Shown one piece after another: positions 1,526-49,862 of a stretch of DNA of 64,000 nucleotides (within the stretch, counting starts at the first letter, position 1; every line of letters begins with the position of its first letter). Source of the DNA: a bacterium (GTDB taxonomy: Bacteria; Patescibacteriota; Minisyncoccia; Minisyncoccales; UBA10102); the NCBI GenBank assembly GCA_030647485.1, contig JAUSJT010000004.1, positions 173,088 through 237,087 on the forward strand, given 5' to 3'. The position numbers and the translations under genes were made by a program. The notes beneath the pieces were generated by a model. That model saw nothing but the letters and a program-made list of their open reading frames with translations, did no database searches and was not told the DNA's origin.

Positions 1526-1526
1526 T

Positions 1527-3909: not shown

Positions 3910-3927
3910 ATTTTTCCAAGAAAAATT

Positions 3928-4224
3928 ATGATTACAAAAGAAGAAGTACAACATATCGCGCAATTGGCGCGCATTCGAATAAATGAAAAGGAGGTAGAAA
4001 AACTCCAGCAAGATATTTCCGGAATCCTTGATTATTTTGCCGTGCTCAAAGATGCAGATACGTCAAAAGTTGAAGCGACAACGCATTCAATTATTCTTGA
4101 GAACATATCAAGAGAAGACGTTGCCCATCCGGGAAGCCCTGCGCTTTTACAGAAGCTCGTTGATATGTTCCCGGCTGTACGAGATGGGCTGCTAAGAGTA
4201 AAAGCTATTTTCTCTTCCAGATGA
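3928..4224 (+). CDS. gatC: Asp/Glu-tRNA amidotransferase subunit C
   Basis: 98 aa GatC-like protein (ITKEEVQHIAQLARI). Its stop overlaps the gatA start. Confidence 0.85.
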   Translation: MITKEEVQHIAQLARIRINEKEVEKLQQDISGILDYFAVLKDADTSKVEATTHSIILENISREDVAHPGSPALLQKLVDMFPAVRDGLLRVKAIFSSR

Positions 4225-5633
4225 ACTTAGATCTTTCTATTAAAAACATTGCAGACGGGCTTGTCGGAAAGCTGTTTTCTGCAAAGGAATTAACCAAAGA
4301 GTTTTTGGATGCTGCCAAGAAAAAGGATAAGGATATCCATGCGTTTTTGAATTTTACAGAAGACATTGCTTTGAATCAAGCAGAAAAGATTGACGAGAAA
4401 ATCGCTCAAGGAGAAAAGCTTGGAGCGTTGGCTGGGGTGCCCTGTTCCGTTAAGGACGCAATTTTAGTGGAAGGCGCGCCTTGCACCGCAGGTTCCAAGA
4501 TCTTGGAACGATATGTAGCTCCGTATGACGCTACGGTTGTAAAAAAAATTAAGGAGGCAGGGGCAATCATCATCGGGAAGACAAATATGGATGAGTTTGG
4601 CATGGGCGGCTCCACGGAAAATTCTGCGTTTGGGCCAACAAAGAATCCACATGATCTCACTCGAGTTTCAGGGGGAAGCGGAGGAGGATCAACAGCAAGC
4701 GTTGCGGCGGAAGAATGCGTTATTGGGCTCGGAGAAGATACGGGCGGTTCCATACGTTTGCCCTCGTCCTTTTGCGGAGTTGTGGGACTTAAGCCGACCT
4801 ATGGGGCAGTATCAAGATACGGAGTTATTGCCCTTGCCTCTTCTTTAGATCAGGTGGGGCCAGTTGCAAAGACCGTGGAAGATGCGGAAATCCTATTCAA
4901 CGTCATTCGTGGAAAGGATGAGTTAGATTCAACTTCAGTTGAATACGAAATACAAGATACGAAATACAAGATACAAGATTTACGCATTGGAATTCCTAAA
5001 GAATATTTTAGCAAGGGCCTTGATCCTGACGTAGAGAAGGTGATACGAGATGCCATCAAGAAACTAGAAAACGCAGGGGCAAAGATCCAGGAGATTGAAC
5101 TTCCTCATACCAAGTATGCTCTTGCGGCATACTACATTATCAATACATCAGAGGCGTCTGCGAATCTTGCGAGGTATGATGGGATACGGTATGGATTGTC
5201 TTTGCAAGGAGGTTCTTCTTTATTGGATACGTATCTGGATGCACGGGGAGAAGGACTGGGGCAAGAAGTGAAACGACGCATTATCTTGGGCACCTATGCT
5301 TTATCTGCGGGGTATTATGAGGCATACTATAATAAAGCCCAGAAAGTAAGAACCTTGTTAAAACAGGATTTTGAAAAGGCTTTTGAGAAAGTGGATGTTA
5401 TTGTTGGCCCAGTTAGTCCTTTTCTTCCCTTTACAATAGGGGAGCGTATCACAGATCCCTTGCAGATGTACTTGGTGGATATTTACACGGTTCCCGTGAA
5501 TCTTGCAGGATTGCCTGCGTTATCAGTGCCAGCAGGAAAAGTAGGGAACCTTCCCGTAGGATTGCATATGATAGCTCCTGCGTTTGAGGAACAAAGGCTC
5601 TTTGAGACAGGCAAACTTTTTGAAAAGTTATGA
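4221..5633 (+). CDS. gatA: Asp/Glu-tRNA amidotransferase subunit A
   Basis: Amidase signature (GGSGGGS, EDTGGSIRLPSSFCG). Typical GatA length. Confidence 0.95.
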   Translation: MNLDLSIKNIADGLVGKLFSAKELTKEFLDAAKKKDKDIHAFLNFTEDIALNQAEKIDEKIAQGEKLGALAGVPCSVKDAILVEGAPCTAGSKILERYVAPYDATVVKKIKEAGAIIIGKTNMDEFGMGGSTENSAFGPTKNPHDLTRVSGGSGGGSTASVAAEECVIGLGEDTGGSIRLPSSFCGVVGLKPTYGAVSRYGVIALASSLDQVGPVAKTVEDAEILFNVIRGKDELDSTSVEYEIQDTKYKIQDLRIGIPKEYFSKGLDPDVEKVIRDAIKKLENAGAKIQEIELPHTKYALAAYYIINTSEASANLARYDGIRYGLSLQGGSSLLDTYLDARGEGLGQEVKRRIILGTYALSAGYYEAYYNKAQKVRTLLKQDFEKAFEKVDVIVGPVSPFLPFTIGERITDPLQMYLVDIYTVPVNLAGLPALSVPAGKVGNLPVGLHMIAPAFEEQRLFETGKLFEKL

Positions 5634-6151
5634 TTGACATACAAGAGATAATTGCTCGCGTGACCAACCCTGGCATGATAATGATATTTTTCCCTTGGAG
5701 CATGATCTTGGGAATCATAGGCATTGGCATGCTCGTTTTTATCGTTTGGGTTATTTGGAACTTCAGTTGGAAACAGTTTGTGTTTATGTTTGATGCCACT
5801 GAATTCTTTACCTACCGAGCATACGGGACAGGAGGGCTAACTAATCAATGGAAGAATGTCTTAAGACGCTTGGAGACTCCAAGCGAAGAAGAGTATAAGC
5901 TTGCGGTACTTGAAGCGGACGGTATGCTTGATCAATCGTTAAAGCGTATGGGGTTTGCGGGGGATACTTTGGCTGACCGTTTGCAGAAAGTAAGTGTTGG
6001 GATTATCTCCAATCTTTCCGAAGTTCGCCAAGCGAACGCTATTCGGAACAATATTGTGCATGATCCAAATTATAAGATTACCCTAAGCGAAGCGCGGAGA
6101 ATCATAGAAGTCTACGAGACTGCCTTTGAGGGTCTTGATTTGATCTCTTAG
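5630..6151 (+). CDS. hypothetical membrane protein with C-terminal R-N-x3-H (HEPN/DUF4145-like) motif
   Basis: One or two N-terminal TM helices. C-terminal helical region contains AIRNNIVHD. Start overlaps the gatA stop. Confidence 0.5.
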   Translation: MIDIQEIIARVTNPGMIMIFFPWSMILGIIGIGMLVFIVWVIWNFSWKQFVFMFDATEFFTYRAYGTGGLTNQWKNVLRRLETPSEEEYKLAVLEADGMLDQSLKRMGFAGDTLADRLQKVSVGIISNLSEVRQANAIRNNIVHDPNYKITLSEARRIIEVYETAFEGLDLIS

Positions 6152-6155
6152 TTTG

Positions 6156-6226
6156 TTGCGGGGCCGGGAGTTGAACCCGGATCTAAAGGTTATGGGCCTC
6201 TCATGATACCGATTCACTTCCCCGCG
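6156..6226 (-). tRNA. initiator tRNA-fMet (CAT)
   Basis: Hand-folded cloverleaf. 5' CGCGGGG and 3' CCCCGCAA match the E. coli tRNA-fMet ends, giving the C1:A72 mismatch. Anticodon loop is CCCATAA and T-arm is CCGGG-TTCAACT-CCCGG. Confidence 0.75.
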
Positions 6227-6283
6227 CAACTATTGTATCTTGAAATTTGTTCAATGTAAAGCTATACTTCAGGATGCAGAAAT

Positions 6284-6356
6284 GCCGGGGTAGTTCAGCG
6301 GTTAGAACACCGCCTTCATAAGACGGGAGTCGTGAGTTCGAGTCTCACCCCCGGCA
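6284..6356 (+). tRNA. tRNA-Met (CAT), elongator or Ile2-type
   Basis: Cloverleaf GCCGGGG/CCCCGGC, anticodon loop TTCATAA, T-arm GTGAG-TTCGAGT-CTCAC. Confidence 0.8.
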
Positions 6357-6369
6357 CAAGGCAATTCAT

Positions 6370-6445
6370 GCGGGCGTAGCTCAGCTTGGTTTAAAGCGCC
6401 TCCCTGTCACGGAGGAGATCGTGGGTTCAAATCCCATCGCCCGCG
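6370..6445 (+). tRNA. tRNA-Asp (GTC)
   Basis: Acceptor GCGGGCG/CGCCCGC, anticodon arm CCTCC-CTGTCAC-GGAGG, T-loop TTCAAAT. Confidence 0.9.
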
Positions 6446-6580
6446 CCCTTAAAACTTAATTCCATTAAGTTATTCATACCTTAGACAAACTAAGGATTTT
6501 GTGTTTGACAAATAAAGCAGATCTGTTATCTATAAAGAGGGAAAGAACTTTAACAATGCTTTAGTAAAGGAAGGTGTCGC

Positions 6581-7243
6581 ATGGTAAACTCCCTAAGCAT
6601 TCACGAAAGAGAAATCGGCCTTGATATTTTTGACTCGGGAATGGTGAGTCTCGAAGCAGTCTCTTGGCACGTACATAGAACGCATCCTGAACTGCAATTG
6701 CCGCCAGCCCCCATATTCATTGACTTGGGCGGATTGCCGCAAGAGCTTGTCACTAAAATAGGGGCACTCCTGTGCGCAAAAGCCGTTCAAGCAGCTATGC
6801 GCTTTGACAAGATTGCTGGGGTTCCAACCGGAGGCAATGGCTTTGCAGAAGCATTTTGCACGGCACTTAGGGGTGATAGATCCCTATTGCTAACATTGCA
6901 AAAGACAGGCCAGGGAATTCAAGGTCCAGTTGAAGGATTCCTTGAATTGCGTAACCTTGTCTTACTAGTGGAAGACGTCATTACAACCGGCGAAAGCACG
7001 CTTGAGACGATTGAAGTTCTTGGAGCAGGAGGCTGTATTGTACACAACGTGATGGCTGTCATTGATTACGGGCTAGGGGCAGCCGAACGTCTCAACGCAA
7101 AAGACCTAACCCTTCACTGTATCTTTCCGATTTCACAGTTACTTAGTTTGTGGCTTGATACGGAAAGAATCGCTACAGAGCAATACGATGAGGTAATGGC
7201 ATTTTTTAATACCGTGAGAACAAAACTAATGCCAAGCCTGTAG
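6581..7243 (+). CDS. type I phosphoribosyltransferase (orotate PRTase-like)
   Basis: PRPP-binding loop VLLVEDVITTGEST. About 220 aa. The N-terminal part is divergent. Confidence 0.65.
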   Translation: MVNSLSIHEREIGLDIFDSGMVSLEAVSWHVHRTHPELQLPPAPIFIDLGGLPQELVTKIGALLCAKAVQAAMRFDKIAGVPTGGNGFAEAFCTALRGDRSLLLTLQKTGQGIQGPVEGFLELRNLVLLVEDVITTGESTLETIEVLGAGGCIVHNVMAVIDYGLGAAERLNAKDLTLHCIFPISQLLSLWLDTERIATEQYDEVMAFFNTVRTKLMPSL

Positions 7244-7266
7244 TTGTTCTCTTGCTCGATTTTCTT

Positions 7267-7297
7267 GCCGCTGAACACTCGTTCAGCGGCTTTTTTC
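7267..7297 (+). terminator. rho-independent terminator
   Basis: GCCGCTGAAC-ACTC-GTTCAGCGGC followed by TTTTTT. Confidence 0.8.
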
Positions 7298-7371
7298 TTC
7301 TTTTACCTTCTAAAAACTGGGGATAACTAGGGTTGATTTCTCTTTCATTTTAAGGTAGAATAAGGAGGTAT

Positions 7372-8502
7372 ATGGATATTAAAATAAGCTTGGCAGAGGA
7401 GCAGGAAATAAGAAAATCACTTGAACAAAGAGACGATCCGGAGGCCAAAAGAATGCTTCGGTTTTTGAATATGCCAGACTTGTCGCGCGCGCCCGATAGT
7501 CCGCTTGCCGCAATTATAGAACGGGTAAAAAAGGTGCCCGTGCTGAAAAACTTTGACGACATCAAGATTCCCGATATTGTCTCGACTCATGTTCTTTTTG
7601 ATTTGTTCAATATGCCTCCCGGTCACCCGGCCCGCAGCAAATCAGATTCTTATTATGCAGATGAGGAGCACATTTTGATAACCCACGATACAGTGATGTG
7701 GTATTTCTACCTGAACCATCCCGATGTAAAGAAAAAGATTGAGAACGGTGAAGACCTGGGGGTCATCTGTTACGCCAAAGTCTACCGCAAAGACGAAATA
7801 GACAGAAAGCACATGAACGTTTTTCATCAGTTTGGCGGACTGTATTTGGTGCGCGACGAACAAAAGACCTTAGCCATAGAGGACTTAAAAAGCGCCCTTA
7901 CTGAAATAGCGCAAAGTATTTTCGGCAAAGGCATAAAGATCCGTTTCAACCAGGACAATTTTCCCTATACGGATCCCAGTTTAGAAATGGAGATCGAGAT
8001 AAACGGTCAATGGATTGAGATGCTGGGCTGCGGTATGGCCCGTAAAAGCGTTTTGGCCAACTTCGGTCTTACCGGATACCACGGCTGGGCATTTGGTTTT
8101 GGCCTGGAACGCATGGCCATTGTTAGTATGAACCTTCCTGATATTCGGCTTTTATGGTCAGAAGATCCCCGGGTAAAAAAACAGTTGAAGATCGGGAACT
8201 CCTTTGTTCCGGTGAGCAAGTATCCGTCCATCACCCGGGACATATCTTTTGTCGTCAGCAAGGATTTTATTCCCAATAACTATTTTGATTTGATCCGAGA
8301 CATTGGTAGAGACTTGGTCGAGGAAGTTAAACTCATTGATAAATATGAGGATACGGAAAAGTTTGGTCAAGACAAGATAAGCTATACTTACCGGATCGTA
8401 TACCGAAGCAATGAAAAAACCCTGGTAAGTAAGGAGGTTGATGTGCTCCAGAATGAGATTTACAAGCAAACAGCCGAACAGTTTGGCGCAGAACTTCGTT
8501 AG
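7372..8502 (+). CDS. pheS: phenylalanyl-tRNA synthetase, single-chain type (PheS-like core fused to FDX-ACB-like domain)
   Basis: Class II motif 2 (YRKDEIDRKHMNVFHQFGG) and motif 3 (GWAFGFGLERMAI). The C-terminal ~95 aa (SKYPSITRDISFVV..YRIVYRS..) resemble the anticodon-binding domain normally found at the PheT C-terminus. No pheT is adjacent. Confidence 0.8.
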   Translation: MDIKISLAEEQEIRKSLEQRDDPEAKRMLRFLNMPDLSRAPDSPLAAIIERVKKVPVLKNFDDIKIPDIVSTHVLFDLFNMPPGHPARSKSDSYYADEEHILITHDTVMWYFYLNHPDVKKKIENGEDLGVICYAKVYRKDEIDRKHMNVFHQFGGLYLVRDEQKTLAIEDLKSALTEIAQSIFGKGIKIRFNQDNFPYTDPSLEMEIEINGQWIEMLGCGMARKSVLANFGLTGYHGWAFGFGLERMAIVSMNLPDIRLLWSEDPRVKKQLKIGNSFVPVSKYPSITRDISFVVSKDFIPNNYFDLIRDIGRDLVEEVKLIDKYEDTEKFGQDKISYTYRIVYRSNEKTLVSKEVDVLQNEIYKQTAEQFGAELR

Positions 8503-8510
8503 AAAATATT

Positions 8511-10442
8511 ATGGCAAAAAAACCAACACAATCATCTAGTTATACCGCAAAAGATATCCAAGTCTTGGAGGGATTGGATCCTGTTAGGAAGAGACCTGCA
8601 ATGTATATTGGGTCTACTGGCTTGGATGGGCTTCATCATTTAGTGTGGGAGGTTTTAGATAATGCCATAGACGAAGCCATGGCAGGATATGCAAAGAATA
8701 TTGCTTTGTCTTTATTGCCCTCAAACAGGGTGCGTGTTATAGACGACGGGAGAGGAATCCCGGTAGAAAAGCATCCCCAGACCAAGAAATCTACCCTAGA
8801 GACCGTCATGACCATTCTGCATGCAGGAGGAAAGTTCGGAGGAGAAGCATACAAGGTATCAGGAGGCCTTCACGGAGTTGGTGTTTCTGTGGTGAACGCT
8901 CTTTCTATTTATATGAAGGCCGAGGTGTCACGAGACGGCATGCGATACGAACAGGAATATGTAAGGGGAGAGCCTAAGGGTCCTGTTAAGAAAGTAGGGA
9001 GTTCAAAGGGGACTGGCACTGCCGTGCTATTTGAGGCGGATCCCGAAATCTTCAAAGAGATCAAATTTGACGCCAAAAAAATCAAGGACCATTTGCGCCA
9101 GCAAGCATACCTAACTTCAGGAGTATGCATTACGTTTGTTGACGAGCGAGACGAGCAAAAAAAAGAAACCTACGCTTTCTATTTTGAAGGAGCTCTGGCC
9201 TCTTACGTAGACTACCTTACAAGGGGCATGACTTCCGAGCATGAAAACATATTCTATGCAAAGGGAGAACGGGATGGCATTGTAGTAGAAGCAGCATTTC
9301 GTTACACAAAGGAATTTGAGATCTATGAAGAGAGCTTTGCAAACAATATAATTACTCCGGAAGGAGGGACGCATCTTACAGGTTTTCGTTCTGCGCTTAC
9401 CCGTACGCTCAATGATTACGCAAAAAAGAACAACATTCTCAAAGGAGAAGATACTCTTACGGGGGATGATGTAAGAGAGGGCATGACCGTGGTGGTGTCA
9501 ATAAAAATTAGAGAACCTCAATTTGAGGGCCAGACAAAAGCAAAACTAGGAAACCCTGAAGCCAAAACCGTGGTAGAGACCATAGTCACAGAGACCCTGA
9601 ATGATTTCCTTGAACGGAACCCGCAAGACGCCAGAGCTATTTTAGAGAAATGCCTTTTGGCTTCTAAGGCACGACAGGCTGCAAAAGCAGCGCGCCAGAC
9701 CGTGTTGCGTAAGGGAATCTTGGAGGGCCTCGCTCTTCCTGGAAAACTTGCAGACTGTTCTTCAAAAGATCCCGAAGAATCAGAATTATACTTAGTAGAA
9801 GGAGAGTCAGCAGGAGGTTCAGGTAAGCAGGCCCGAGACCGAAAATTCCAGGCCATACTGCCCCTTCGAGGGAAGATTCTAAACGTAGAACGAGCGCGCC
9901 TAGACAAGATCCTTTCTTCTAAAGAAATACGTTCTTTGGTTATTGCTTTGGGCACTGCCATTGCAGAAGATTTTGATATTGAAAAGCTTCGTTATCACCG
10001 CATTATTATCATGGCTGACGCGGATTCTGATGGAAACCACATCCGCACGCTTATCCTTACCTTGTTCTATCGATATTTTAAGCCATTGATTGAGCATGGA
10101 TACCTGTATATCGCCCAGCCTCCTCTGTATAAAATACAGGTGGGAAAACATATAGGGTATGCCTACACGGAAGATCAGAAAGAAAAAGTGGTGGCAGGGC
10201 TAATAAAACAGGCAGGATCTGGCAAGCCAAACATTCAGCGCTACAAGGGTTTGGGAGAAATGAACCCAGAAGAGCTTTGGGAGACTACTATGAACCCTCA
10301 AAACCGCATTCTTCTTCAAGTTACCATTGAGAACGGTAAAGAAGCAGACCGTATTTTTGACATCTTGATGGGGGACGAAGTGCTACCCCGCAAGAAGTTT
10401 ATCCAAACCTACGCTAAGAGTGTGAAGAACCTTGACATTTAG
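8511..10442 (+). CDS. gyrB: DNA gyrase subunit B
   Basis: GHKL ATPase (HHLVWEVLDNAIDE) and Toprim (LVEGESAGGS, PLRGKILNVE, IMADADSDGNHI). Confidence 0.97.
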   Translation: MAKKPTQSSSYTAKDIQVLEGLDPVRKRPAMYIGSTGLDGLHHLVWEVLDNAIDEAMAGYAKNIALSLLPSNRVRVIDDGRGIPVEKHPQTKKSTLETVMTILHAGGKFGGEAYKVSGGLHGVGVSVVNALSIYMKAEVSRDGMRYEQEYVRGEPKGPVKKVGSSKGTGTAVLFEADPEIFKEIKFDAKKIKDHLRQQAYLTSGVCITFVDERDEQKKETYAFYFEGALASYVDYLTRGMTSEHENIFYAKGERDGIVVEAAFRYTKEFEIYEESFANNIITPEGGTHLTGFRSALTRTLNDYAKKNNILKGEDTLTGDDVREGMTVVVSIKIREPQFEGQTKAKLGNPEAKTVVETIVTETLNDFLERNPQDARAILEKCLLASKARQAAKAARQTVLRKGILEGLALPGKLADCSSKDPEESELYLVEGESAGGSGKQARDRKFQAILPLRGKILNVERARLDKILSSKEIRSLVIALGTAIAEDFDIEKLRYHRIIIMADADSDGNHIRTLILTLFYRYFKPLIEHGYLYIAQPPLYKIQVGKHIGYAYTEDQKEKVVAGLIKQAGSGKPNIQRYKGLGEMNPEELWETTMNPQNRILLQVTIENGKEADRIFDILMGDEVLPRKKFIQTYAKSVKNLDI

Positions 10443-10541
10443 AGATAGATATGCTATTGTAATTTTACAGAAAAAGGGGTGTAAAATTCTCATCGACTAG
10501 TTTCGATGTTACGCCCTAAGCACTTTTACAGGGAGGAAAAG

Positions 10542-11264
10542 ATGTCAGCAGTCACTCTTCATGAGGGTGCCCAACGAACTGGACCGACAGAGACGGTCGG
10601 TGTATTCTGCGGATATTCAGAGCGAGGTGCCAGGCGAGCAGTAAAAACCGCCGAGGGGAAACTTTATACGGTAAGCAGTTGGCGTAGAACAAGCACCGGA
10701 GGAAGGGAATCCTTAGAAGTGGATTACCTTCCAGAATCTAAGCCGGTGGCAAAGTTCTGTTACCTTCCCGGATATGGAGGGAGAAGGAAAAGCTTTTTCC
10801 TTTTTCCGATACCGGGGAACTTTGAAGGGATCCGTCCCACGCGGAGGATGATGCGTCAGGGAGGAGCCACCTACTTAGACTTTCCTTCTTATCTTCTTGC
10901 AGTCCAGTGGGGAAGGAAGTCATCAGCTTATCTGCTTGTCGTGCAACAGTCGTGTCGGGAGGACGAATGGATCCGTGGCCTCAAAACCTCTGAGTGGACC
11001 GCCACTGCTTTTAATCAGATCCTCCAGGGAAAGGAAGACGAGGTTGCCGCCCTCAGAAGTCTAGAAGAATACTTAGATATACTGAGGAAGGCGCAGGATA
11101 CAGACTTTCCCGGCATCTCTACCTTCGTTAGGCTTACTCTGGAACGCTTACCTTCCATGCCTTCTGGTATGAATGTTAGAGACTTAGGCTGGGGGGCTAC
11201 TACAGTGTTACAGCAAGGCCTCCCCAGACCGCCAAACCCTTTTTATAGCAAGGAGGTTGTATAG
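10542..11264 (+). CDS. hypothetical protein (orphan)
   Basis: Long ORF. ATG at 10542 is preceded by GGGAGGA. No motif recognised. R/G/W-rich, with G/C-ending codons unlike its neighbours. Confidence 0.5.
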   Translation: MSAVTLHEGAQRTGPTETVGVFCGYSERGARRAVKTAEGKLYTVSSWRRTSTGGRESLEVDYLPESKPVAKFCYLPGYGGRRKSFFLFPIPGNFEGIRPTRRMMRQGGATYLDFPSYLLAVQWGRKSSAYLLVVQQSCREDEWIRGLKTSEWTATAFNQILQGKEDEVAALRSLEEYLDILRKAQDTDFPGISTFVRLTLERLPSMPSGMNVRDLGWGATTVLQQGLPRPPNPFYSKEVV

Positions 11265-11287
11265 AGAGCAAGTAAAAGGCAAAAGGG

Positions 11288-11331
11288 CCCCGAGAAGAGA
11301 GTGAAAACTTTCTCGGGGCTTGACTTTTTTT
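11288..11331 (+). terminator. terminator hairpin
   Basis: CCCCGAGAA..TTCTCGGGG stem followed by a T-run. The stem sequence is shared with the terminator at 28272. Confidence 0.6.
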
Positions 11332-11398
11332 GACGAAGGTATAAAAATAGAAGTATGAAGAAAGTGAGGCCTAGAGGCCTTTTTAGATAGAAAAACGC

Positions 11399-11593
11399 AT
11401 GACATCTATATTTGGGAAAATCCTCCTGTTTTTAAAGGAGGTACAGCTTGAGACAAAAAAAGTTAATTGGCCCAAAAGGCAAGACACCATAAAGAGCACT
11501 GTCATTGTGATTCTGTTTTCTGTTGTGGTTGCCATGATTTTGAGCCTTTTTGACCTTGCCTTTACTTCTTTGATGAAGCGTTTTATCTTGTAG
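11399..11593 (+). CDS. secE: preprotein translocase subunit SecE
   Basis: 64 aa. KKVNWPKRQDT followed by a single TM helix. Located immediately upstream of nusG. Confidence 0.8.
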   Translation: MTSIFGKILLFLKEVQLETKKVNWPKRQDTIKSTVIVILFSVVVAMILSLFDLAFTSLMKRFIL

Positions 11594-11614
11594 AAATTTA
11601 TGTATAATAAATTT

Positions 11615-11682
11615 AGGTTTCCCCCGTGTAGGAAATTATTCAAAACCGAGGGTTTTGAAAAGAGGGGGGTCGGGGGAAACCT
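11615..11682 (+). repeat. SR element copy B
   Basis: AGGTTTCCCCCG-TGTAGGAAA..CAAAACC-GAG-GGTTTTG..GGGGGGTCGGGGGAAACCT. The outer stem is a perfect 12 bp. Confidence 0.7.
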
Positions 11683-11693
11683 TGTGAACGTGT

Positions 11694-12239
11694 ATGCCTA
11701 AACAACAAATCACCCAGGAACGCAATTGGTACGTTATTCATACGTACTCTGGCTATGAAGATGCGGTAGCGCGCAATCTCAAGCAAAGGATTGAATCCTT
11801 GGGCATGGAAGACAAGATATTCCAGGTATTGGTTCCAAAGGAGAAAAAGATTAAGATTAAGAATGGAAAGCGCAAGCTCATTGAAGAGAAGATTTATCCA
11901 GGGTATGTCCTCGTGGAAATGGTTGTGACTGACGATTCCTGGTACGTAGTACGGAATACTCCCAACGTAACTGGATTCGTGGGAGCGGGAACCACTCCTA
12001 TTCCCGTATCTACCGATGAAATAGAGTATCTGAAAAAGCGCATGGGGACAGATACTCCCCAGTACGACATCCAAGTGACCATAGGAGACGTGGTTAAAAT
12101 AACTGACGGCCCATTCAAAGATTTTGAGGGAAAAGTGTCTGCAATAGACCAAGAGCGCGGCAAGATAAAAGTGCTGGTCAATATGTTTGGCCGAGACACT
12201 CCCGTAGAGCTAGACTCCTTACAGATTAAAAAATTGTAA
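11694..12239 (+). CDS. nusG: transcription antitermination factor NusG
   Basis: NGN domain (WYVIHTYSGYE) and KOW motif (GDVVKITDGPFKDFEGKV). Confidence 0.95.
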   Translation: MPKQQITQERNWYVIHTYSGYEDAVARNLKQRIESLGMEDKIFQVLVPKEKKIKIKNGKRKLIEEKIYPGYVLVEMVVTDDSWYVVRNTPNVTGFVGAGTTPIPVSTDEIEYLKKRMGTDTPQYDIQVTIGDVVKITDGPFKDFEGKVSAIDQERGKIKVLVNMFGRDTPVELDSLQIKKL

Positions 12240-12317
12240 TCAGCTTGTAGCTAGTAGCTTGTAGCTTTTTAGGAAAGAATTTCTACAACCTACAAGCTAA
12301 TTCCTACAACCTCGCTT

Positions 12318-12740
12318 ATGGCAAAGAAAATAAAAGCAGTAGTCAAACTTCATATCGCCGCAGGAAAGGCGACCCCGGCTCCTCCCGTAGGCCCTGCCTT
12401 GGCTCAACACGGAGTAAATATTGGGGAGTTCTGTTCTAAGTTCAACGAAGCCACAAAGGCAAACGAGGGTTTTAAGATTCCTGTAGACATTACCATATAC
12501 GAAGACCGAAGCTACCAGTTTAAACTTCATGAGCCTCCCGCAGCCCAGTTGATCAAAAAGGCCATGAGTCTTGAAAAAGGTTCGGGTACTCCAAATAAAA
12601 CAAAGGTTGGAAAGATAACCCAGGCTCAATTGGCAGAAATTGCGAAAAAGAAGATGTCTGACCTCAATACCGAAGACCTAGAGCAGGCAAAGAAAACCAT
12701 TGCCGGCACTGCAAAAAGCTTAGGCATTACCGTAGAATAG
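12318..12740 (+). CDS. rplK: ribosomal protein L11
   Basis: [18 protein letters not shown] motif. 140 aa. Confidence 0.95.
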
Positions 12741-26307: not shown

Positions 26308-26740
26308 GCATTTGGCAAGATCCATTGCAATGCAGTCTTTGTATGAGTGGGACTTTGCTGGAAAGAAAGAGGACTTAAAAGAACTCGTAGAGCGCAATAT
26401 CCAGGAGTTTGGCCCTGGGCTAGAAGACGTTAATAAGGACTTTATCAGAACGCTGGCCTCTGGAGTAAAAGAACATATGCCAGACTTAAACCAGATTATT
26501 GAAAAGGCGGCCCCAGAATGGCCTCTAGAGCAGATTACCATTGTGGACCGCAATGTGCTGCGCTTGGGACTCTTTGAACTCTTGTACGGAAACAAAGACG
26601 AAGTTCCCCCAAAGGTAGCCATTAATGAAGCCATTGAACTTGCAAAGAACTTTTCTGGGGAGTCTTCGGGAAAGTTTGTGAATGGGGTTCTGGGAACCGT
26701 GTACCGAGAATTAGAAAGTGGTTCGACAAGCTCACCATGA
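26297..26740 (+). CDS. nusB: transcription antitermination factor NusB
   Basis: [19 protein letters not shown]-terminus and [12 protein letters not shown] motif. Confidence 0.85.
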
Positions 26741-27438
26741 GCACCATGAAAGATTTTTCTCCTCTAGAGCTAAGCCTGAACGTTTCTTTCAAGGACAAGA
26801 ATTTCCTTGTGCAGGCGTTCATTCACCGCTCGTACTTGAATGAAAACCCGAATTCCGGCCTTCAGCATAATGAACGATTGGAATTCTTGGGAGATGCGGT
26901 GTTAGAGCTCGTAGTGACAGAGAACCTGTACCAGAATTATCCTGACAAACCAGAGGGGGAACTCACTACTTGGCGGGCAGCGCTCGTGAATGCAAAAATA
27001 CTGTCTGAAATTGCAAGATCCTTAAAGTTCAACGACTTTCTACTATTGTCTCGGGGAGAAGGCCAAGAAGAGGGGAAAGCGCGAGATTACATTCTTGCTA
27101 ACACCATGGAATCTTTTATTGGAGCCTTGTACCTTGACCAGGGGCTGAAAGTATGCGAAAAGTTTATCACAGAGCATATTCTTTCAAGACTCCCCGCCAT
27201 ACTTGCAGACAAACTCTTTGAAGACGCAAAATCCAGATTCCAGGAACTAGCCCAAGAAAAGGTGGGGATAACCCCTACGTACCAGGTTATTGAAGAGTGG
27301 GGTCCTGACCACGAAAAGAACTTTAAGGTGGGGGTGGTCATTGGAAGTGAAGTAATTGCACAAGGAAGAGGTACATCCAAGCAGGAAGCAGAACAAGACG
27401 CAGCTTCCCAGGCATTAAAAAAGAAGGGTTGGAACTGA
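26737..27438 (+). CDS. rnc: ribonuclease III
   Basis: [16 protein letters not shown] signature and C-terminal dsRBD. Confidence 0.95.
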
Positions 27439-27450
27439 AACGATACACAT

Positions 27451-27951
27451 ATGTTAATGATAAGATTCATGCGAATAGGGAGGAAGAATCAGCCGTCTTT
27501 TAAGATTGTGGTGACCGAAAAGACGAAATCTTCCACAGGAGGACGCTTTGTGGAAGATGTTGGTTTTTACAACCCCATCACAAAAGAGAAAGTCCTGAAA
27601 CCAGAGAGGTTAAAGTACTGGATATCACAAGGAGCACAGCCGACTCCCACCGTTTCTAATTTGTTAATATCAGAGAAGGTGATAGAAGGAGAAAAAATCC
27701 CAAAGCACAAAAAATCCAAGAAGCCCGCAGAAACTCCTGCAGCTCAATCTACAGCAGTCCCAGCTCAAATCCCAACTCCCCAGCCTTCGCCATCCGCCTC
27801 CGCTGAAGCTACGGCGAACAAGGAGGCTACGGCGAGCGTAGCAGAACAGCTCATCGAGTCTGAAGGCTCTTCAGAACCTGAACGGCCAAAAGTTGAAGAG
27901 CCAAAGCCCGCAGAACAACCGCCTCAAGTATCTCCAGAAGAGGGCAAGTAG
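27451..27951 (+). CDS. rpsP: ribosomal protein S16 with low-complexity C-terminal extension
   Basis: MLMIRFMRIGRKNQPSFKIVV N-terminus. The tail is rich in P, A, E and S. Confidence 0.9.
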   Translation: MLMIRFMRIGRKNQPSFKIVVTEKTKSSTGGRFVEDVGFYNPITKEKVLKPERLKYWISQGAQPTPTVSNLLISEKVIEGEKIPKHKKSKKPAETPAAQSTAVPAQIPTPQPSPSASAEATANKEATASVAEQLIESEGSSEPERPKVEEPKPAEQPPQVSPEEGK

Positions 27952-27977
27952 CCCTCTTCTGTTTATACACAAAAGTC

Positions 27978-28005
27978 TTGACATAAAGAAGAGGTTTGTT
28001 AGAAT
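27978..28005 (+). promoter_or_regulatory. sigma70-type promoter
   Basis: TTGACA, 16 nt spacer, TAGAAT. Confidence 0.5.
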
Positions 28006-28034
28006 GACTTAATTTATTTTATGGAGGTAGTTCC

Positions 28035-28253
28035 TTGAGAGACGATTCAAACACCACAGAAAACCTACAATGTACTAATTGCGGAATGAGATCCCCAGGA
28101 ATACTAAACGGTAACACATGCCTTAGCTGTGGGAAAACAGGGACATTTAAGACCATACTGCCACAGCTGGTTCTTCCAAATAGGGGAAGATTATATCCTA
28201 ACCGTGGCGGTGAACCATCTGGCAGGCGCAGGCGCGGATACCATAGCTGGTGA
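28035..28253 (+). CDS. small zinc-ribbon protein with Arg-rich tail (hypothetical)
   Basis: TTG start 7 nt after GGAGG. CTNCG..CLSCG motif and GRRRRGYHSW tail. Confidence 0.45.
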   Translation: MRDDSNTTENLQCTNCGMRSPGILNGNTCLSCGKTGTFKTILPQLVLPNRGRLYPNRGGEPSGRRRRGYHSW

Positions 28254-28271
28254 TGTGGTTAAGGCCCAATG

Positions 28272-28322
28272 CCCCGAGAAAGAATGGCGATTATAAGCGT
28301 TATCTTTCTCGGGGTATTTTTT
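28272..28322 (+). terminator. rho-independent terminator
   Basis: CCCCGAGAAAGA..TCTTTCTCGGGG followed by TATTTTTT. Confidence 0.75.
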
Positions 28323-28333
28323 ACAAGTGGGCC

Positions 28334-28362
28334 TTGACATTTGCAGGGTTATATGCTATACT
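28334..28362 (+). promoter_or_regulatory. near-consensus sigma70 promoter
   Basis: TTGACA, 17 nt spacer, TATACT. Confidence 0.55.
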
Positions 28363-28368
28363 CTACCT

Positions 28369-28699
28369 ATAGGATGAAATATGGCTTCGCTGGCGAAGAG
28401 AGAGCGCTAGCGAAATAACAATTTAGAAGTTTGAACGGCAAGCGGCTCTCCCTGCCCCGTAGCATCTCGCAAGAGATTGGTACGGGGTCAAAAGAGTCGC
28501 TTGTTCGTTGTAAAGAACCTGCACACTTGAGTTCATAATCCTAGATTAGGGATTCAAGTGTGGGGAAGCACATTGGCAAATCTTGTCGTGGTAGCAGATT
28601 GGGTATAAAATTGTATCTAATCTGCTGCTACGATGTACGTAGTAGTCCTTTCAAGCCACAAGCGCCCAGTGGAAACTGGGTAGGAGAAGGAGTATTATC
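28369..28699 (+). ncRNA. long structured leader or ncRNA (unknown family)
   Basis: Downstream of the consensus promoter. Extended hairpin 28439-28503 (11 bp, 7 bp and 5 bp helices with a GCAA loop). Further hairpins at 28522-28562, 28587-28632 and 28665-28680 (CCCAGT-GGAA-ACTGGG). Confidence 0.4.
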
Positions 28700-28909
28700 A
28701 TGCGTCAGGTTCTTGGTCTGAGAGCTCTTCGGCGGATCACTGGGGAAACGTATTTTACGCCAGAGAGGTTTAATCGCCTCAATCAGATTGCGGAAGTCGC
28801 AATCGGGGTGAGGCCCGATCTGGCTTCACGTGGTTCGTGGAACTGGGATAGACCCACTTCCACGCTTACCGTGCTAACGAGGCACGGCATGATGGAAAGA
28901 AGTTTTTAG
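28700..28909 (+). CDS. hypothetical protein, 69 aa (coding status uncertain)
   Basis: ATG follows GGAGAAGGAG. However, codons are G/C-ending and several internal hairpins are present (e.g. 28786-28804). Confidence 0.3.
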   Translation: MRQVLGLRALRRITGETYFTPERFNRLNQIAEVAIGVRPDLASRGSWNWDRPTSTLTVLTRHGMMERSF

Positions 28910-29030
28910 TAGCTCTTTGGAGAAAGGGAAGCTGAACTCGCGAATGCAAGTCCAGCTTCCCAGATCTCTTGAGTTCATCACTGTAAAAAATCTTGGTGGT
29001 GAACCGAAGGGAGAAAAGTTGAAAAGGGGG

Positions 29031-29297
29031 ATGACTAAGCAGCAGATCTTTGAAGATCTTAAAGGACAAGTAGATAGAGGGGAACCTCTTCTGCTTGAGA
29101 TTATTGGCGGAGTTCACAAGATTCTTTCCTTGGATCTCGTAGAGGGTGGGTACTATATACAAACCTCAAACGAGCAAGGAGAAGTTATTGGAAAAACGCT
29201 GATTGATCCGGATGTCGCGCGAGCAGAACTTCGGACCCTCGCAATAAAAAGGTCTGTAGGTAGAACTCAAAGGAGGCGAAAAAGGGGGAAGGCATGA
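29031..29297 (+). CDS. hypothetical basic-tailed protein, 88 aa (ORF track start 28917 is less likely)
   Basis: ATG at 29031 follows AAAGGGGG. The region upstream of it folds into strong hairpins at 28926-28961 and 28973-29004. C-terminus is RTQRRRKRGKA. Confidence 0.4.
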   Translation: MTKQQIFEDLKGQVDRGEPLLLEIIGGVHKILSLDLVEGGYYIQTSNEQGEVIGKTLIDPDVARAELRTLAIKRSVGRTQRRRKRGKA

Positions 29298-29401
29298 AAA
29301 TGCTCTTCCCCGATCCCTTAAGCCCAAGGCTAGGCCTTGTGCCGATGTCGTGGGCTTAAGAGATTGAACAGCACCTTATACAATTTCTTCGGGGCGGCGA
29401 A

Positions 29402-29698
29402 ATGGACATCAGGGTAGTAGTAGAACTACAAACTACTAACTACAAACTAAAAACTGATTCTGGTGTTCAGCTCGCCGCTATGGAATTCATAGCGAAACAG
29501 AAAGAAAAGAATGGGGTAGCACCTAAAGGAAGAGAGATGTTCGCACAAAAGGGGCCGGGAACTTTGAATGATTTCTTCACGCAAGAACGCGAAGAGATAA
29601 GAAATTTTTTCCACCGACAGGCAGACGTGGAGATGGCATTAAAGACCCAGGTAAGTGTTGAGGTAATTCTCCGGAATTACCTGGGAAGACCCCGATAA
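29402..29698 (+). CDS. hypothetical protein (alternative start 29480)
   Basis: ORF of 98 aa. The first 26 codons overlap a G-poor CTACAAACTA leader-like motif also seen upstream of other genes, so 29480 (MEFIAKQ) may be the true start. Confidence 0.35.
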   Translation: MDIRVVVELQTTNYKLKTDSGVQLAAMEFIAKQKEKNGVAPKGREMFAQKGPGTLNDFFTQEREEIRNFFHRQADVEMALKTQVSVEVILRNYLGRPR

Positions 29699-29822
29699 GG
29701 CGGCGGGGCAAGGCGAGGAGCAAGAGAATTTGTTCACACGAATCCCTCTGCTCCTCCATTCATCAAAGTTCAGAAAGAAATTTATGGATTTTGATGGGGA
29801 AAGTTCTTTGAAATAGACTAGG

Positions 29823-30110
29823 CTAAGAGAGATCAACGCCGAGTTTCGCTTTGAGCACTTGTTTGACGCGATTGATGTCCTGTTTCATAATGGTAAATTC
29901 GTCTTCCATGTCGGTCATGCGCTTGAGAAACTTATCCAGCGTGGTAGTAAGTTTCTCAATCTTCTGATTAATCCGTAGTTCCATCCTTTCCAGCTTTTTA
30001 TCAACATCTGAAAGAATAACAATACGGTTCATTGAAAGTTTTTCATCCACGGCATTCAGAATAACCTTTGTCTGTCTATCTAAAAGTTTTTCGATGTTTT
30101 GTTCCGCCAT
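29823..30110 (-). CDS. hypothetical coiled-coil protein, 95 aa
   Basis: Heptad-rich K/E/L sequence with native-like codon usage. Convergent with the preceding ORFs. Confidence 0.5.
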   Translation of the reverse strand: MAEQNIEKLLDRQTKVILNAVDEKLSMNRIVILSDVDKKLERMELRINQKIEKLTTTLDKFLKRMTDMEDEFTIMKQDINRVKQVLKAKLGVDLS

Positions 30111-30282
30111 ATATTTATTGTAAGTCTTCAGCGCAAGATGTCAACAACACTTTGAAAACATGTTACATAAGAGAGCATAGAGGCGCTCTCGCAGAAGATT
30201 ATTTTTTCTCTCCTATCTTCTGTGAGAGTACCTCTGCGTTCTTGACCCCTCCCTTTCTTAAAAAGGTTAGGAAAGGGAGGGA

Positions 30283-30310
30283 TTGACACTCCTAGAGAAA
30301 AATATACAAT
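30283..30310 (+). promoter_or_regulatory. sigma70-type promoter for the KH-protein/trmD genes
   Basis: TTGACA, 16 nt spacer, TACAAT. Preceded by an 11-bp hairpin CCCTCCCTTTC..GAAAGGGAGGG. Confidence 0.5.
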
Positions 30311-30370
30311 AAGAAAGTAATATCAGAAAGGTCGAATAGCAGTTTGTACCGTTGTAACTGAATTCATTAT

Positions 30371-30685
30371 ATGGCAGACGCATACCAAGATCTTCTCGAA
30401 TATATTGTGAAGGGCATTGTAGACCATCCTGACGACGTAAAGCTAGATAGAAAAGTTGACGAGATGGGCGTATTGCTCACCCTCAAGGTCAACCCAGAAG
30501 ACATGGGTCTTCTCATCGGCCGGGAGGGATCTACCGCACGATCAATAAGAACATTGATCCGCATTGCGGGCCTCAAAGCGCACGCAAGGGTAAACCTCAA
30601 AATAGAGGAACCTGAAGGAGGCCGCGTGCCAAGAAAGGAGTCTACAGACGAAAAGAAAGAATCTATCGACGACCTGAAGATATAG
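30371..30685 (+). CDS. KH-domain RNA-binding protein (YlqC/KhpA family)
   Basis: LLEYIVKGIVDHPDDV and LIGREGSTARSIRTL (GxxG loop). Confidence 0.85.
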   Translation: MADAYQDLLEYIVKGIVDHPDDVKLDRKVDEMGVLLTLKVNPEDMGLLIGREGSTARSIRTLIRIAGLKAHARVNLKIEEPEGGRVPRKESTDEKKESIDDLKI

Positions 30686-30804
30686 TCCTTCGATAAACTC
30701 AGGCCTTCGGCTCTGAGACTCAGGCTTGAAGAGATTAAGAGAGTTGTCTGAAATAAGAAAACAGTGCTACTATACAGGTGGCATTGTTTTCTTTTTTGCA
30801 ACAT

Positions 30805-31545
30805 ATGATTACATTTGACGTTATCACTATATTTCCAGAGTTCGTAAAGGCATTCTCTCAAGAATCTTTATTGAAAAAAGCTCAAGAGAAAAAACTCTTG
30901 AAGATAAACGTACACAACTTGAGAGATTGGGCAACAGACCCGCACAAGAAGGTTGATGACAAACCCTTTGGCGGGGGATTAGGCATGGTATTTAAAATTG
31001 AACCTTTGTACGAAGCAGTTCAAGATATAAGGAAATCCTTCCGCTCGCAAGCGTCAGGATCTCGACCAAAGGTCTCGAAAACTAAAGTCATCTTGTTCAC
31101 TCCTCGTGGAAAGAAATTCACCCAGCAAAAAGCAGAAGAACTTGTAAAGAACAAACGCCTTATCTTTATATGCGGAAGGTATGAGGGGATAGACGAAAGA
31201 GTGGCAAAACATATCGCAGATGAGGAACTGTCTATTGGGGACTATGTCTTAATGGGAGGGGAAATCCCTGCCATGGCCGTTATTGAGACAATAGCCCGTC
31301 TTATCCCGGGGGTCGTAGGCAAGCCCACCTTTCTTAAAGAACGCCGCCTAGGCGTCAAATCGGGCCAAAAACAAGGGTTTTTAGAGTATCCCCAGTATAC
31401 TCGCCCCGAGATTTTCTCCCCCCGCCTCGCCGGCGGGCGGGCTAAAAAGGGAGTAGTATGGAGGGTGCCTAAGGTTCTACTTTCTGGAGATCATAAAAAG
31501 ATTGAAGAATGGAAGCGAGAACAAGGCAGGGTTATTTGCAAATAG
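30805..31545 (+). CDS. trmD: tRNA (guanine37-N1)-methyltransferase
   Basis: MITFDVITIFPEF, CGRYEGIDERV and GGEIPAMAVIE motifs. Internal basic insert. Confidence 0.95.
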   Translation: MITFDVITIFPEFVKAFSQESLLKKAQEKKLLKINVHNLRDWATDPHKKVDDKPFGGGLGMVFKIEPLYEAVQDIRKSFRSQASGSRPKVSKTKVILFTPRGKKFTQQKAEELVKNKRLIFICGRYEGIDERVAKHIADEELSIGDYVLMGGEIPAMAVIETIARLIPGVVGKPTFLKERRLGVKSGQKQGFLEYPQYTRPEIFSPRLAGGRAKKGVVWRVPKVLLSGDHKKIEEWKREQGRVICK

Positions 31546-47619: not shown

Positions 47620-47701
47620 GGAGCCGGGCCGAGCTTCCATATGCCGTCCCGCTACGCGGGACATGGCAATTAAGGTTGCTCGGCCGCAAAAATTCAAGCA
47701 G
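47620..47701 (+). repeat. small palindromic insert after ftsI
   Basis: GGCCGAGC..GCTCGGCC outer stem, inner GTCCCGC-TAC-GCGGGAC, then AAAATTCAA-GCAG-TTGAATTTT. Confidence 0.5.
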
Positions 47702-47734
47702 TTGAATTTTCGCCCAGATTATGAGATAGAATAG
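47702..47734 (+). pseudogene. displaced duplicate of the ftsI 3' end
   Basis: Encodes L-N-F-R-P-D-Y-E-I-E-stop versus the genuine L-E-I-P-P-D-Y-E-I-E-stop. The last six codons differ only at third positions. Confidence 0.65.
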
Positions 47735-47745
47735 GAAAGACACAC

Positions 47746-47821
47746 GGCCTCATCGTCTAGCCTGGTCTAGGACATCTGGTTCTCATCCAGAAGATCAGGG
47801 GTTCAAATCCCCTTGAGGCCG
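47746..47821 (+). tRNA. tRNA-Glu (CTC)
   Basis: Acceptor GGCCTCA/TGAGGCC, anticodon arm TCTGG-TTCTCAT-CCAGA. Confidence 0.9.
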
Positions 47822-47896
47822 CAACGTAATAAATTTGTCTTGCAAATTTAAACGTTGCTGGAACGTTGAATTTTGTTAAACAAAATTCAACGTTCC
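47821..47896 (+). repeat. post-tRNA double-hairpin module, copy 2
   Basis: GCAACGT..ACGTTGC hairpin followed by GGAACGTTGAATTTTGTT-AAA-CAAAATTCAACGTTCC. Confidence 0.6.
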
Positions 47897-47968
47897 GCAA
47901 ATCAAACTTGAATCTCACAATCAGTCGTGGTACAGTAATAACAGAACGTTTGAAGGAGGTAAGTAGTA

Positions 47969-48881: not shown

Positions 48882-49016
48882 ATTGGTGTATCTTTAGTGT
48901 ATCACCTACGAAACATACGTGTCAAGACCCCTAGACTTCATCATCTACAAACCGGATAAACGGCAATATCAACCACGCTGCGGCGGTGAATACCGCAGAA
49001 ACCACAATAAGAGGAA

Positions 49017-49788
49017 GTGTTAGACCTCGGAGGTCTAACACTTCCGAGGTCTAACATCTTGGCTAAACCTATTCAAGAAAAAGATGGCTGAGATGAATCT
49101 CGTTTTCTTTAAGCTTTGCTGTGCTTGTATCCACAAATTCCTGGTAGAACTTTTGCGTTGTAAATTGATTCAGCACAATGTTTGGGTTAAGAAGTTCTTT
49201 CCAGCGATTTTCTCTGGCGAAATCCTGATAACTTGACCAGGGATAGGAAATCTCTTTATCCGTCCAGGCTTCCAATGATCTCGGGTTACGATGGATATAC
49301 GCTGAAAGATAAAGAAGTTGCTCGTTTTTCTCAACAGGTACCGCGCGAAAACTTCCCCGAAAAACATGTCCGCCCCTCTGGTATTTTGCATTAAAATATT
49401 TTGCGTATCCACCTTCAAGTCGTTGAAGATAGCTTGAGATACCACCCTTTTCTTTTTCTTGAATCAGCAGATGAAAATGATTGGGCATTATCGCAAAAGC
49501 ATTCAGTTCCACCTGCTGTTTGGAACGCATCTGCACTATTGCTTCTTGGGCAATGTTAAACTTTGTGTGTTCAATAAAATACGAGACGGAACGTCCGATG
49601 TTGAAAAACGGAGTGGGGAATTGATAAAAGAGCAGGAAGAAAATCATACGCGCATAGTCACGTTCGTCGAAAAAGATGGTTTTGCCATCGTTGCTTTTAT
49701 TGCAGAGATGATAATAGAACCCTGGCGCAAATTGAATTTTCCTCCTCATGCTTTTAGTGTATCATGCTAGACCTCCGAGGTCTAACAT
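49017..49788 (-). mobile_element. IS200/RAYT-like unit bounded by related palindromes
   Basis: GTGTTAGACCTC-G-GAGGTCTAACAC at 49017-49041 (plus a half-copy at 49042-49057). ATGCTAGACCTC-C-GAGGTCTAACAT at 49764-49788. Confidence 0.6.
49069..49749 (-). CDS. Y1 (HUH) transposase, IS200-like / REP-associated tyrosine transposase family
   Basis: HUH motif MPNHFHLLI and catalytic-Tyr region YLSAYIHRNP. 226 aa. Confidence 0.8.
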   Translation of the reverse strand: MRRKIQFAPGFYYHLCNKSNDGKTIFFDERDYARMIFFLLFYQFPTPFFNIGRSVSYFIEHTKFNIAQEAIVQMRSKQQVELNAFAIMPNHFHLLIQEKEKGGISSYLQRLEGGYAKYFNAKYQRGGHVFRGSFRAVPVEKNEQLLYLSAYIHRNPRSLEAWTDKEISYPWSSYQDFARENRWKELLNPNIVLNQFTTQKFYQEFVDTSTAKLKENEIHLSHLFLE

Positions 49789-49862
49789 GCTGCCGGGACT
49801 CTATGAGGCCGCTACGAATACACGGTATAGCGTAAACTCACCATTCTTTCTATAATAGAAGA

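Follow-up and report, generated by a model that had tools for sequence, protein, structure and literature searches.

Covarying RNA hairpins punctuate a modular small-gene island between rpsP and a KH gene in a Parcubacteria-type genome

The locus described here is a modular 2.4-kb island of small open reading frames (ORFs) and conserved hairpins, located between rpsP (ribosomal protein S16) and a KH gene in a Parcubacteria-type genome of the Candidate Phyla Radiation (CPR). It was analysed within a stretch of 64,000 nucleotides (contig JAUSJT010000004.1 of assembly GCA_030647485.1, positions 173,088 to 237,087, forward strand), hereafter called the window, to which all coordinates refer unless a related locus (L followed by a number) is named. 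Among described systems, integron arrays share with the island a promoter at the head, co-oriented and mostly promoterless small orphan ORFs, quickly changing content, widely differing array lengths, and structured imperfect-palindrome repeats at ORF boundaries whose shape is conserved more than their sequence. The island differs from them in lacking an adjacent integrase or attI and RYYYAAC/GTTRRRY cores, in having three element types in a fixed order, a sense strand that folds better and a conserved structured leader, and in its ribosomal-protein and tRNA-modification neighbourhood.

In phage T7, the early genes are expressed from a strongly promoted polycistronic RNA in which many small genes are parted by RNase III-processed hairpins with internal loops. 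Small genes are similarly separated by conserved internal-loop hairpins in the island, and by analogy the helices would be long enough for a double-strand-specific RNase. Unlike the T7 region, the island lies on the chromosome, in synteny across a clade of bacteria; it contains no phage genes, searches of viral contigs revealed no instance, and cleavage is putative. Repetitive extragenic palindromic (REP) sequences and bacterial interspersed mosaic elements (BIMEs) are also short, conserved extragenic hairpins that fold on one strand, and they can stabilise upstream mRNA. REPs are dispersed genome-wide, whereas the island elements are confined, within the 64 kb, to one island and differ from the palindromes around a gene in the window resembling REP-associated tyrosine transposases (RAYT). 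The island resembles attenuators and riboswitch platforms in its conserved leader, at about 110-150 nt from the start site, whose two hairpins are capable of strong alternative pairing with each other; unlike these, its leader has no canonical U-tract terminator, conserved leader peptide or known aptamer. Finally, repeated and conserved structured RNAs amid small genes without known function are found where self-cleaving ribozymes (hammerhead, twister, pistol and hatchet) abound. No Rfam ribozyme model matched the window or eight related loci, and catalysis in the island is hypothetical.

An initial annotation, made from the letters of the window, had presented 28334-29004 as a consensus promoter driving a hairpin-dense transcript of 330-650 nt with GNRA tetraloops, either a large cis-regulatory leader or a novel structured noncoding RNA. 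The region 28369-29004 is not one RNA gene. It is the front of the island, an S16-to-KH interval of 2.4 kb without any recognisable domain. The term leader comes close to the truth for 28363-28699; the single RNA of 330-650 nt does not hold, as the region consists of separable modules that recur shuffled and in multiple copies in related islands. The recurring order is promoter, leader, hairpin, linker, long hairpin, ribosome-binding site and ORF. In the window, the following features were delimited.

28334-28362, + strand: promoter P1, TTGACA-17-TATACT with a TG extension, score 11/12.

28386-28414, + strand: leader hairpin H1, whose 10-bp stem is capped by a conserved loop of purines, GAAG(G)AGAGAG; across 10 sequences, its consensus helix shows 6 compensatory pairs.

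28434-28510, + strand: leader hairpin H2, with base GCAAGCGGCUCUC / GAGUCGCUUG and, behind it, the tail UUCGUU, both of them conserved; its changes are wobble-compatible and compensatory.

28519-28565, + strand: punctuation hairpin, 'D' variant, outer stem CACACUUG/CAAGUGUG and core AGUUC/GGAUU.

28566-28584, + strand: linker GGAAGCACAUUGGCAAAUC, by sequence comparison the counterpart of the box GGAA-AGUUCUUUGAGAA.

28585-28634, + strand: hairpin H4, about 23 bp long and occupying the 'B slot' between linker and ribosome-binding site, the slot being assigned by comparison with L002 and module 2.

28665-28692, + strand: H5, CCCAGU-GGAA-ACUGGG, followed by the ribosome-binding site GGAGAAGGAG.

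28700-28909, + strand: ORF69, in the first ORF slot, of ambiguous coding status.

28926-28961, + strand: intercistronic hairpin with a perfect 9-bp base, for which no homologue was found.

28965-29012, + strand: intercistronic hairpin GAGUUCAUCAC...GGUGGUGAAC, from the minimum-free-energy (MFE) fold.

29031-29297, + strand: ORF88, a gene-like orphan, annotated at NCBI as hypothetical protein Q7S62_02825 of a 'bacterium' metagenome-assembled genome.

29309-29366, + strand: punctuation hairpin, 'A' variant, differing at 3 of 58 nt from that of L002, whose TrmD is 65% identical.

29367-29386, + strand: linker after the A hairpin.

29387-29485, + strand: B element, GGCGGCGA-AA-UGGACAUCAG ... CUGGUGUUCA-GC-UCGCCGCU.

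29537-29698, + strand: third small ORF, gene-like, with a weak homologue in L099; its longest reading starts at 29402, inside B.

29756-29818, + strand: punctuation hairpin, 'C' variant, CAUCAAAGUUC...GGAUUUUGAUG, with trailing box AAAGUUCUUUGAAAUAG; end of the + strand unit.

The promoter claimed initially was borne out by its score, and its core TATGCTATACT is almost invariant across related islands. P1 is the single strong + strand promoter inside the island. All hairpins listed in the initial annotation were recovered in MFE folds: the extended GCAA-capped hairpin at 28439-28503, that at 28522-28562, CCCAGU-GGAA-ACUGGG at 28665-28680, and those at 28786-28804, 28926-28961 and 29317-29360. 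The hairpin placed at 28973-29004 was obtained as 28965-29012. The stem at 28587-28632, estimated at about 10-13 bp, was present as well, its true extent being 28585-28634 with about 23 bp. GNRA tetraloops could not be upheld as a feature of the RNA. GCAA is found in three lineages alone, inside an apical insert of H2 that the others lack (it is present only in the window, L107 and L103), and the GGAA hairpin is unique to this genome.

Folding of 28369-28699 gave an MFE of -148.9 kcal/mol, compared with -90.9 +/- 5.5 kcal/mol for dinucleotide shuffles (z -10.6; 0/100 shuffles as good). The reverse complement reached only -99.4 kcal/mol (z -5.4), indicating that many pairs are G.U wobbles existing on the + strand alone. 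In a 300-nt sliding scan of the whole 64 kb, 28401-28700 was the top + strand outlier. Using DNA energy parameters, the strand asymmetry was smaller but kept (-66.4 versus -53.6 kcal/mol). Structure is concentrated outside the ORFs, with z-scores of -10.6 for the leader (28369-28699), -2.8 for ORF69, -4.2 for 28910-29035, -2.4 for ORF88 and -6.6 for 29298-29820. The same strand preference was seen in homologues: the leader region of L107 scored -6.9 versus -4.3 for its complement, and the + strand was the more stable one for 20/20 hairpins, 9/10 leaders and 15/20 B elements. The second most structured region of the window, 47620-47905, is structured on both strands; a hairpin at about 47620-47690 precedes the tRNA gene 47746-47821, and a near-perfect palindrome at about 47850-47900 (AACGTTGAATTTTGTT/AACAAAATTCAACGTT) follows it.

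Related islands, which belong to groundwater Parcubacteria, were collected as follows. L002 is the closest TrmD locus; one of the noncoding pieces that it shares with the window, used as a degenerate pattern, gave 18 metagenome contigs; and S16 homologues led to the closer relatives L100, L102, L103, L107, L109 and L111. Elements were resolved by iterated nhmmer profiles and covariance models. DNA comparison of L002 with the window showed that short, strongly conserved noncoding pieces recur in a larger island in the corresponding position of L002. Among 80 TrmD loci of other Parcubacteria, L002 was alone in carrying the elements.

Leader hairpins H1 and H2 are conserved in at least nine related metagenomic lineages. 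In an alignment of 10 sequences, 92.9% of cells were paired and 8/21 pairs were compensatory; none of 500 shuffles was as good, and slid controls gave 31-48% pairing. An independent MAFFT/RNAalifold run returned the same two leader helices. In other Parcubacteria, the leader model matched weakly upstream of trmD, and these matches were rejected as ordinary terminator hairpins.

The provisional motifs A, C and D form one hairpin superfamily with the invariant core AGUUC/GGAUU, paired as A-U, G.U, U-A, U.G and C-G and thus containing two wobble pairs. Its outer stems are wholly different yet complementary (CAUCAA/UUGAUG, CACUUG/CAAGUG, CCUCCG/CAGAGG and CUCAUA/UAUGAG). Among 20 sequences, 10/16 pairs were compensatory, the core G.U being kept in 20/20 and the core U.G in 18/20. 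A single-stranded box, AGUUCUUUGAGAA, usually follows the superfamily hairpin, in the conserved form GGAA-AGUUCUUUGAGAA. By eye and unscored, the hairpin at 28965-29012 resembles a superfamily variant of L089, GAGUUCAUCACC...GGUGGUGGAUUC. An exact-pattern scan of metagenomes for the D hairpin gave no match.

B-type hairpins lie 13-16 nt after the box and just before a ribosome-binding site. They consist of a helix of at least 20 bp with a 2x2 internal loop, and their consensus is CUUCAUAGCGGCGA-AA-UGAACAUUAG ... UUAGUGUUCA-GC-UCGCCGCUAUG, with conserved interior subtypes. In 20 sequences, 10/23 pairs were compensatory; the U.G was kept in 19/20 and the G.U in 16/20. A kink-turn reading of the internal loop was rejected by eye, there being no tandem G.A arrangement. 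In the window, the B interior (29424-29455) is an AACTACA heptamer repeat of 4.6 copies; in other lineages, the interior is either of two conserved sequences. This 7-nt unit inside B is the sole tandem repeat, and a type III toxin-antitoxin (ToxI-like) system was rejected on that ground. H4, in the corresponding slot of the first module, has a sequence unique to this genome, with no other copy found; in the place of H5, related islands have a different short hairpin.

Conservation, covariation and stability relative to shuffled controls, on any of which the initial annotation had been prepared to see its RNA fail, thus all came out in favour of real structure. Its statement that no known family could be recognised also stood, as no Rfam match was obtained. 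With Rfam 15 (riboswitches, leaders, ribozymes, 6S, tmRNA, RNase P, SRP, OLE/HEARO/GOLLD/ROOL and other classes), the whole window gave tRNAs only at gathering thresholds; 27900-30400 at E<=10 gave only weak noise of miRNA and snoRNA type, far below threshold, and eight related loci at E<=0.5 gave only tRNAs outside the islands. Viral contigs contained no match to the A hairpin, C hairpin or H2 patterns. Three matches to a B-arm 19-mer were dismissed as chance, lying inside a coding region without partner arm, and H1-loop 17-mer matches occurred without any element.

Island size and content vary strongly. L002, L089, L100, L102, L103 and L107 have 1.3-3.4 kb of small, Pfam-less ORFs between S16 and KH. 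In L111, the island extends for at least 2.5 kb after S16 and the contig ends before any KH gene. In L096, about 20 ORFs without domains make up an array exceeding 10 kb (1231-12300), downstream of dnaJ instead of S16. This array is headed by two promoters resembling P1 and by an H1/H2 leader that has diverged (39 bits), and it apparently ends near a tRNA gene (12392-12463). The contigs of L106, L109 and L110 stop 35-500 nt after S16, at the island start, which suggests that assemblies break on island repeats or strain variation. At the DNA level, islands resemble one another, and repeat internally, only over modules of 40-200 nt, the intervening ORFs being unrelated. Between L002 and L089, S16 and KH are 90-96% identical, yet no + strand ORF is shared, and the same B subtypes occur in a different order. 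Some ORF families recur in distant arrays at 54-68% identity with protein-like divergence, so that some of the ORFs, at least, are genuine genes that change places.

This turnover would also fit the main rival explanation, in which the hairpins are recombination sites folding in single-stranded DNA and the island is an integron-like cassette platform served by a recombinase encoded elsewhere. Co-oriented small orphan ORFs downstream of one promoter, structured repeats at the ORF boundaries whose stems covary and whose cores are conserved, the wholly different ORF content of L002 and L089 despite flanking genes that are 90-96% identical, array sizes from 1.3 kb to more than 10 kb and contigs breaking right after S16 all fit it, as do hairpins that are significant with DNA parameters on a top strand probably exposed as lagging-strand template. 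We nevertheless consider it unlikely. No recombinase flanks the island, housekeeping genes (rnc/rpsP and KH/trmD) being found on both sides at every S16-KH locus, and no tyrosine recombinase was present among window ORFs of 280-420 aa. The attC cores are absent, the element ends being CCAUCAA.../...UUGAUGG or GCGGCGA.../...UCGCCGC. Instead of one site per cassette, there are three element types in fixed order relative to the ribosome-binding site; and the sense strand folds better (hairpins 20/20), whereas integrons use the bottom strand.

Elements within arrays are multi-copy and near-identical (98% over 164 nt in L096), and a RAYT-like Y1 transposase is present in the window. Both facts would suit selfish or neutral repeats of REP type or of miniature inverted-repeat transposable element (MITE) type, piled up in a permissive hotspot without a role in expression. 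This we regard as improbable, since the elements are confined to the island, share one orientation per locus and occur nowhere else in the 64-kb window, their orientation and order are fixed relative to promoter, ribosome-binding sites and ORFs, and wobbles and covariation are kept across lineages whose TrmD is just 63-65% identical. The palindromes flanking the RAYT-like gene, moreover, are unrelated to the island elements and do not occur in the island. This gene (49069-49749, - strand) encodes 226 aa with an IS200-like Y1 transposase domain and scores 45 bits with the REP-associated tyrosine transposase model, against a cut-off of 80; palindromes TAGACCTCNGAGGTCTA on both sides (49013-49056 and 49763-49789) give it a REP/RAYT-like arrangement.

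ORF69 is the test case for another alternative, close to the initial annotation, in which 28369-29004 is one long noncoding structured RNA and the ORF at 28700 goes untranslated. The atypical codon usage reported for this ORF was verified: it scores -0.042 per codon, at the 2.9th percentile of real 69-codon gene segments, and 12.9% of noncoding frames score higher. A word-indexed search of 5.8 billion proteins matched ORF69 to itself alone, its AlphaFold model (ORF69 alone) had an uninformative predicted local distance difference test score (pLDDT) of 58.7, and hairpins run on through it. These observations leave the single RNA a small chance, because conservation covers only parts of the stretch, which recur separately and in other orders, and because there is no homologue of H4, H5, the ORF69 region or 28926-28961. 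Furthermore, ORF69 occupies, behind a hairpin and a strong ribosome-binding site, the slot that is the first-ORF position of L107, L109, L089, L085 and L103 (after a short hairpin and ribosome-binding site); its frame 0 is the best of three, and with a fold z of -2.8 it is no more structured than the gene-like ORF88 (-2.4). Though its signals are mixed, ORF69 is probably a translated micro-gene, recently acquired or fast-evolving.

No homologue of ORF69 was found among the island ORFs of relatives. In an exhaustive HMMER search, its best match was to a protein of 924 aa, through a 17-residue motif, GETYFTPERFNRLNQIA, that lies in a repeat of that protein; the E-value was inflated because the same short match was counted once per repeat, and it was not counted as homology. 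Other HMMER matches were multi-stretch ones to other large proteins. ORF88 has a codon score of 0.268, like a normal gene, and the third ORF and the convergent gene also score like real genes. Protein homology searches with ORF88 and ORF69 returned self only (Q7S62_02825 and Logan contig L001, the latter 100% identical and hence uninformative). No island ORF had a Pfam domain above threshold and all in the window are shorter than 130 aa, and a retron or other reverse-transcriptase-linked noncoding RNA was rejected accordingly.

The explanation we favour, tentatively, is an RNA-level function in attenuation, processing and stabilisation of a polycistronic transcript. It is preferred because the elements are co-oriented with the promoter and the ORFs, hold fixed positions relative to the ribosome-binding sites and keep their sense-strand wobbles, and because there is a single + strand promoter. 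The island, a hypervariable one of orphan genes, would contain a self-contained + strand transcription unit, running from P1 at 28334 and a start at about 28369 through about 29818. The H1 loop and 3' arm (GGAGAGAGCGC...) are complementary to the H2 5' arm (...GCGGCUCUCC) at -13 to -22 kcal/mol in 8/8 lineages, an energy comparable to that of H2 itself, and this complementarity would explain why a hairpin loop is conserved in sequence. The mutually exclusive pairings of H1 and H2 may act as an attenuator or switch setting the flow of transcription or translation into the island. The superfamily hairpin and box after each ORF, and the B-type hairpin directly before the next ribosome-binding site, would be recognition sites for RNA processing or protection. 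Candidate agents are RNase III, through double-strand-specific cleavage combined with protection of 3' and 5' ends, or a dedicated RNA-binding protein. The polycistronic RNA would in this way be cut into stable units and the translation of each small gene tuned. In addition, the conserved elements could double as homologous flanks for exchange of the ORFs between them. A role in RNA and a role in DNA recombination are not mutually exclusive.

Several points weigh against an RNA-level function or against parts of the scheme. Hairpins were still significant under DNA parameters (z -8.0), and its positive GC skew makes the top strand the probable lagging-strand template, so the same hairpins could form in single-stranded DNA. 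The sequence conservation of stems and linker box exceeds what stability needs and would also fit recognition by a protein or recombinase. The leader counts come from an alignment fitted to the model, a fit that favours structure, and the alternative H1/H2 pairing lies in invariant sequence and is hence without covariation support. H2 and the punctuation hairpins fail the simple intrinsic-terminator rule in scans of the window, L111 and L100, having no U run directly after the stem; the tails that follow are UUCGUU or AAAGUUCUUUGA. Classical attenuation by termination is for that reason unproven. Finally, no leader peptide is conserved among lineages. A 14-codon mini-ORF, MKYGFAGEERALAK (28374-28418), overlaps H1; its peptide is identical in L111 with two synonymous changes, the mini-ORF is altered in L107, and it is absent from L103, L102, L100 and, in all, four lineages.

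The genes around the island are in the order RNase HII, L32, NusB, RNase III, S16, the 2.4-kb island, KH and TrmD. TrmD of the nearest species representative is just 65% identical. Coordinates were as follows.

26737-27438: RNase III.

27451-27951: S16 (rpsP).

29823-30110, - strand: convergent coiled-coil gene, following the + strand unit.

30371-30685: KhpA-type KH protein.

30778-31545: TrmD.

S16 of the window has 166 aa, with a long C-terminal tail rich in Pro, Ala, Glu and Ser; close relatives have 109-131 aa. Between S16 and P1 lies a 72-aa zinc-ribbon ORF (CxxC...CxxC; region 28035-28322) with its own consensus promoter (27978-28005) and a very atypical codon score (-0.17). It also has a canonical terminator at 28272-28322, just upstream of P1. 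In the same position, L107 has a 72-aa ORF of weak similarity (LQCT.C; E 0.004), and small zinc-ribbon ORFs are also found in the islands of L111, L002 (4781-5053) and L096 (12979-13296). The coiled-coil protein (95-117 aa, opposite strand) is the sole island gene of the window kept in relatives, at 55-64% identity (L002 5155-5508; L089 3252-3578). Its gene lies within the S16-KH island in the window and L089 and after the KH gene in L002, and the protein matches phrog_3961 weakly. Divergent consensus promoters (30144-30117, - strand; 30283-30310, + strand) are located between the coiled-coil and KH genes, and between them is a long hairpin (30176-30238), with arms of about 24 bp, which can fold on either strand.

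A bolder possibility, to which we attach little probability, is that the elements are parts of an undescribed CPR gene-cassette system. Either they would then be structure-specific recombination sites of an unlinked recombinase, in an integron analogue distant from its integrase, or one of them, most plausibly the B element of about 85 nt with its conserved interior subtypes, would be a new self-processing or protein-guided RNA that cuts the polycistronic transcript into units.

Three covariation-supported RNA families, present in no database, that punctuate a hypervariable micro-gene island in a Parcubacteria clade are new, and no description of such islands was found in the literature. CPR bacteria (Patescibacteria) are mostly uncultured organisms with tiny genomes, and much of their RNA biology is still uncharted. 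In the island, the fastest-changing gene content of the neighbourhood is coupled with its most conserved noncoding sequence, defining a hotspot for the swapping of small orphan genes. With the covariance models, islands of this kind, which now break metagenome assemblies, can be located and delimited in such data. If the elements are recombination sites, they would represent a new cassette-capture system; if they are processing signals, they would show how CPR organisms express arrays of accessory micro-genes.

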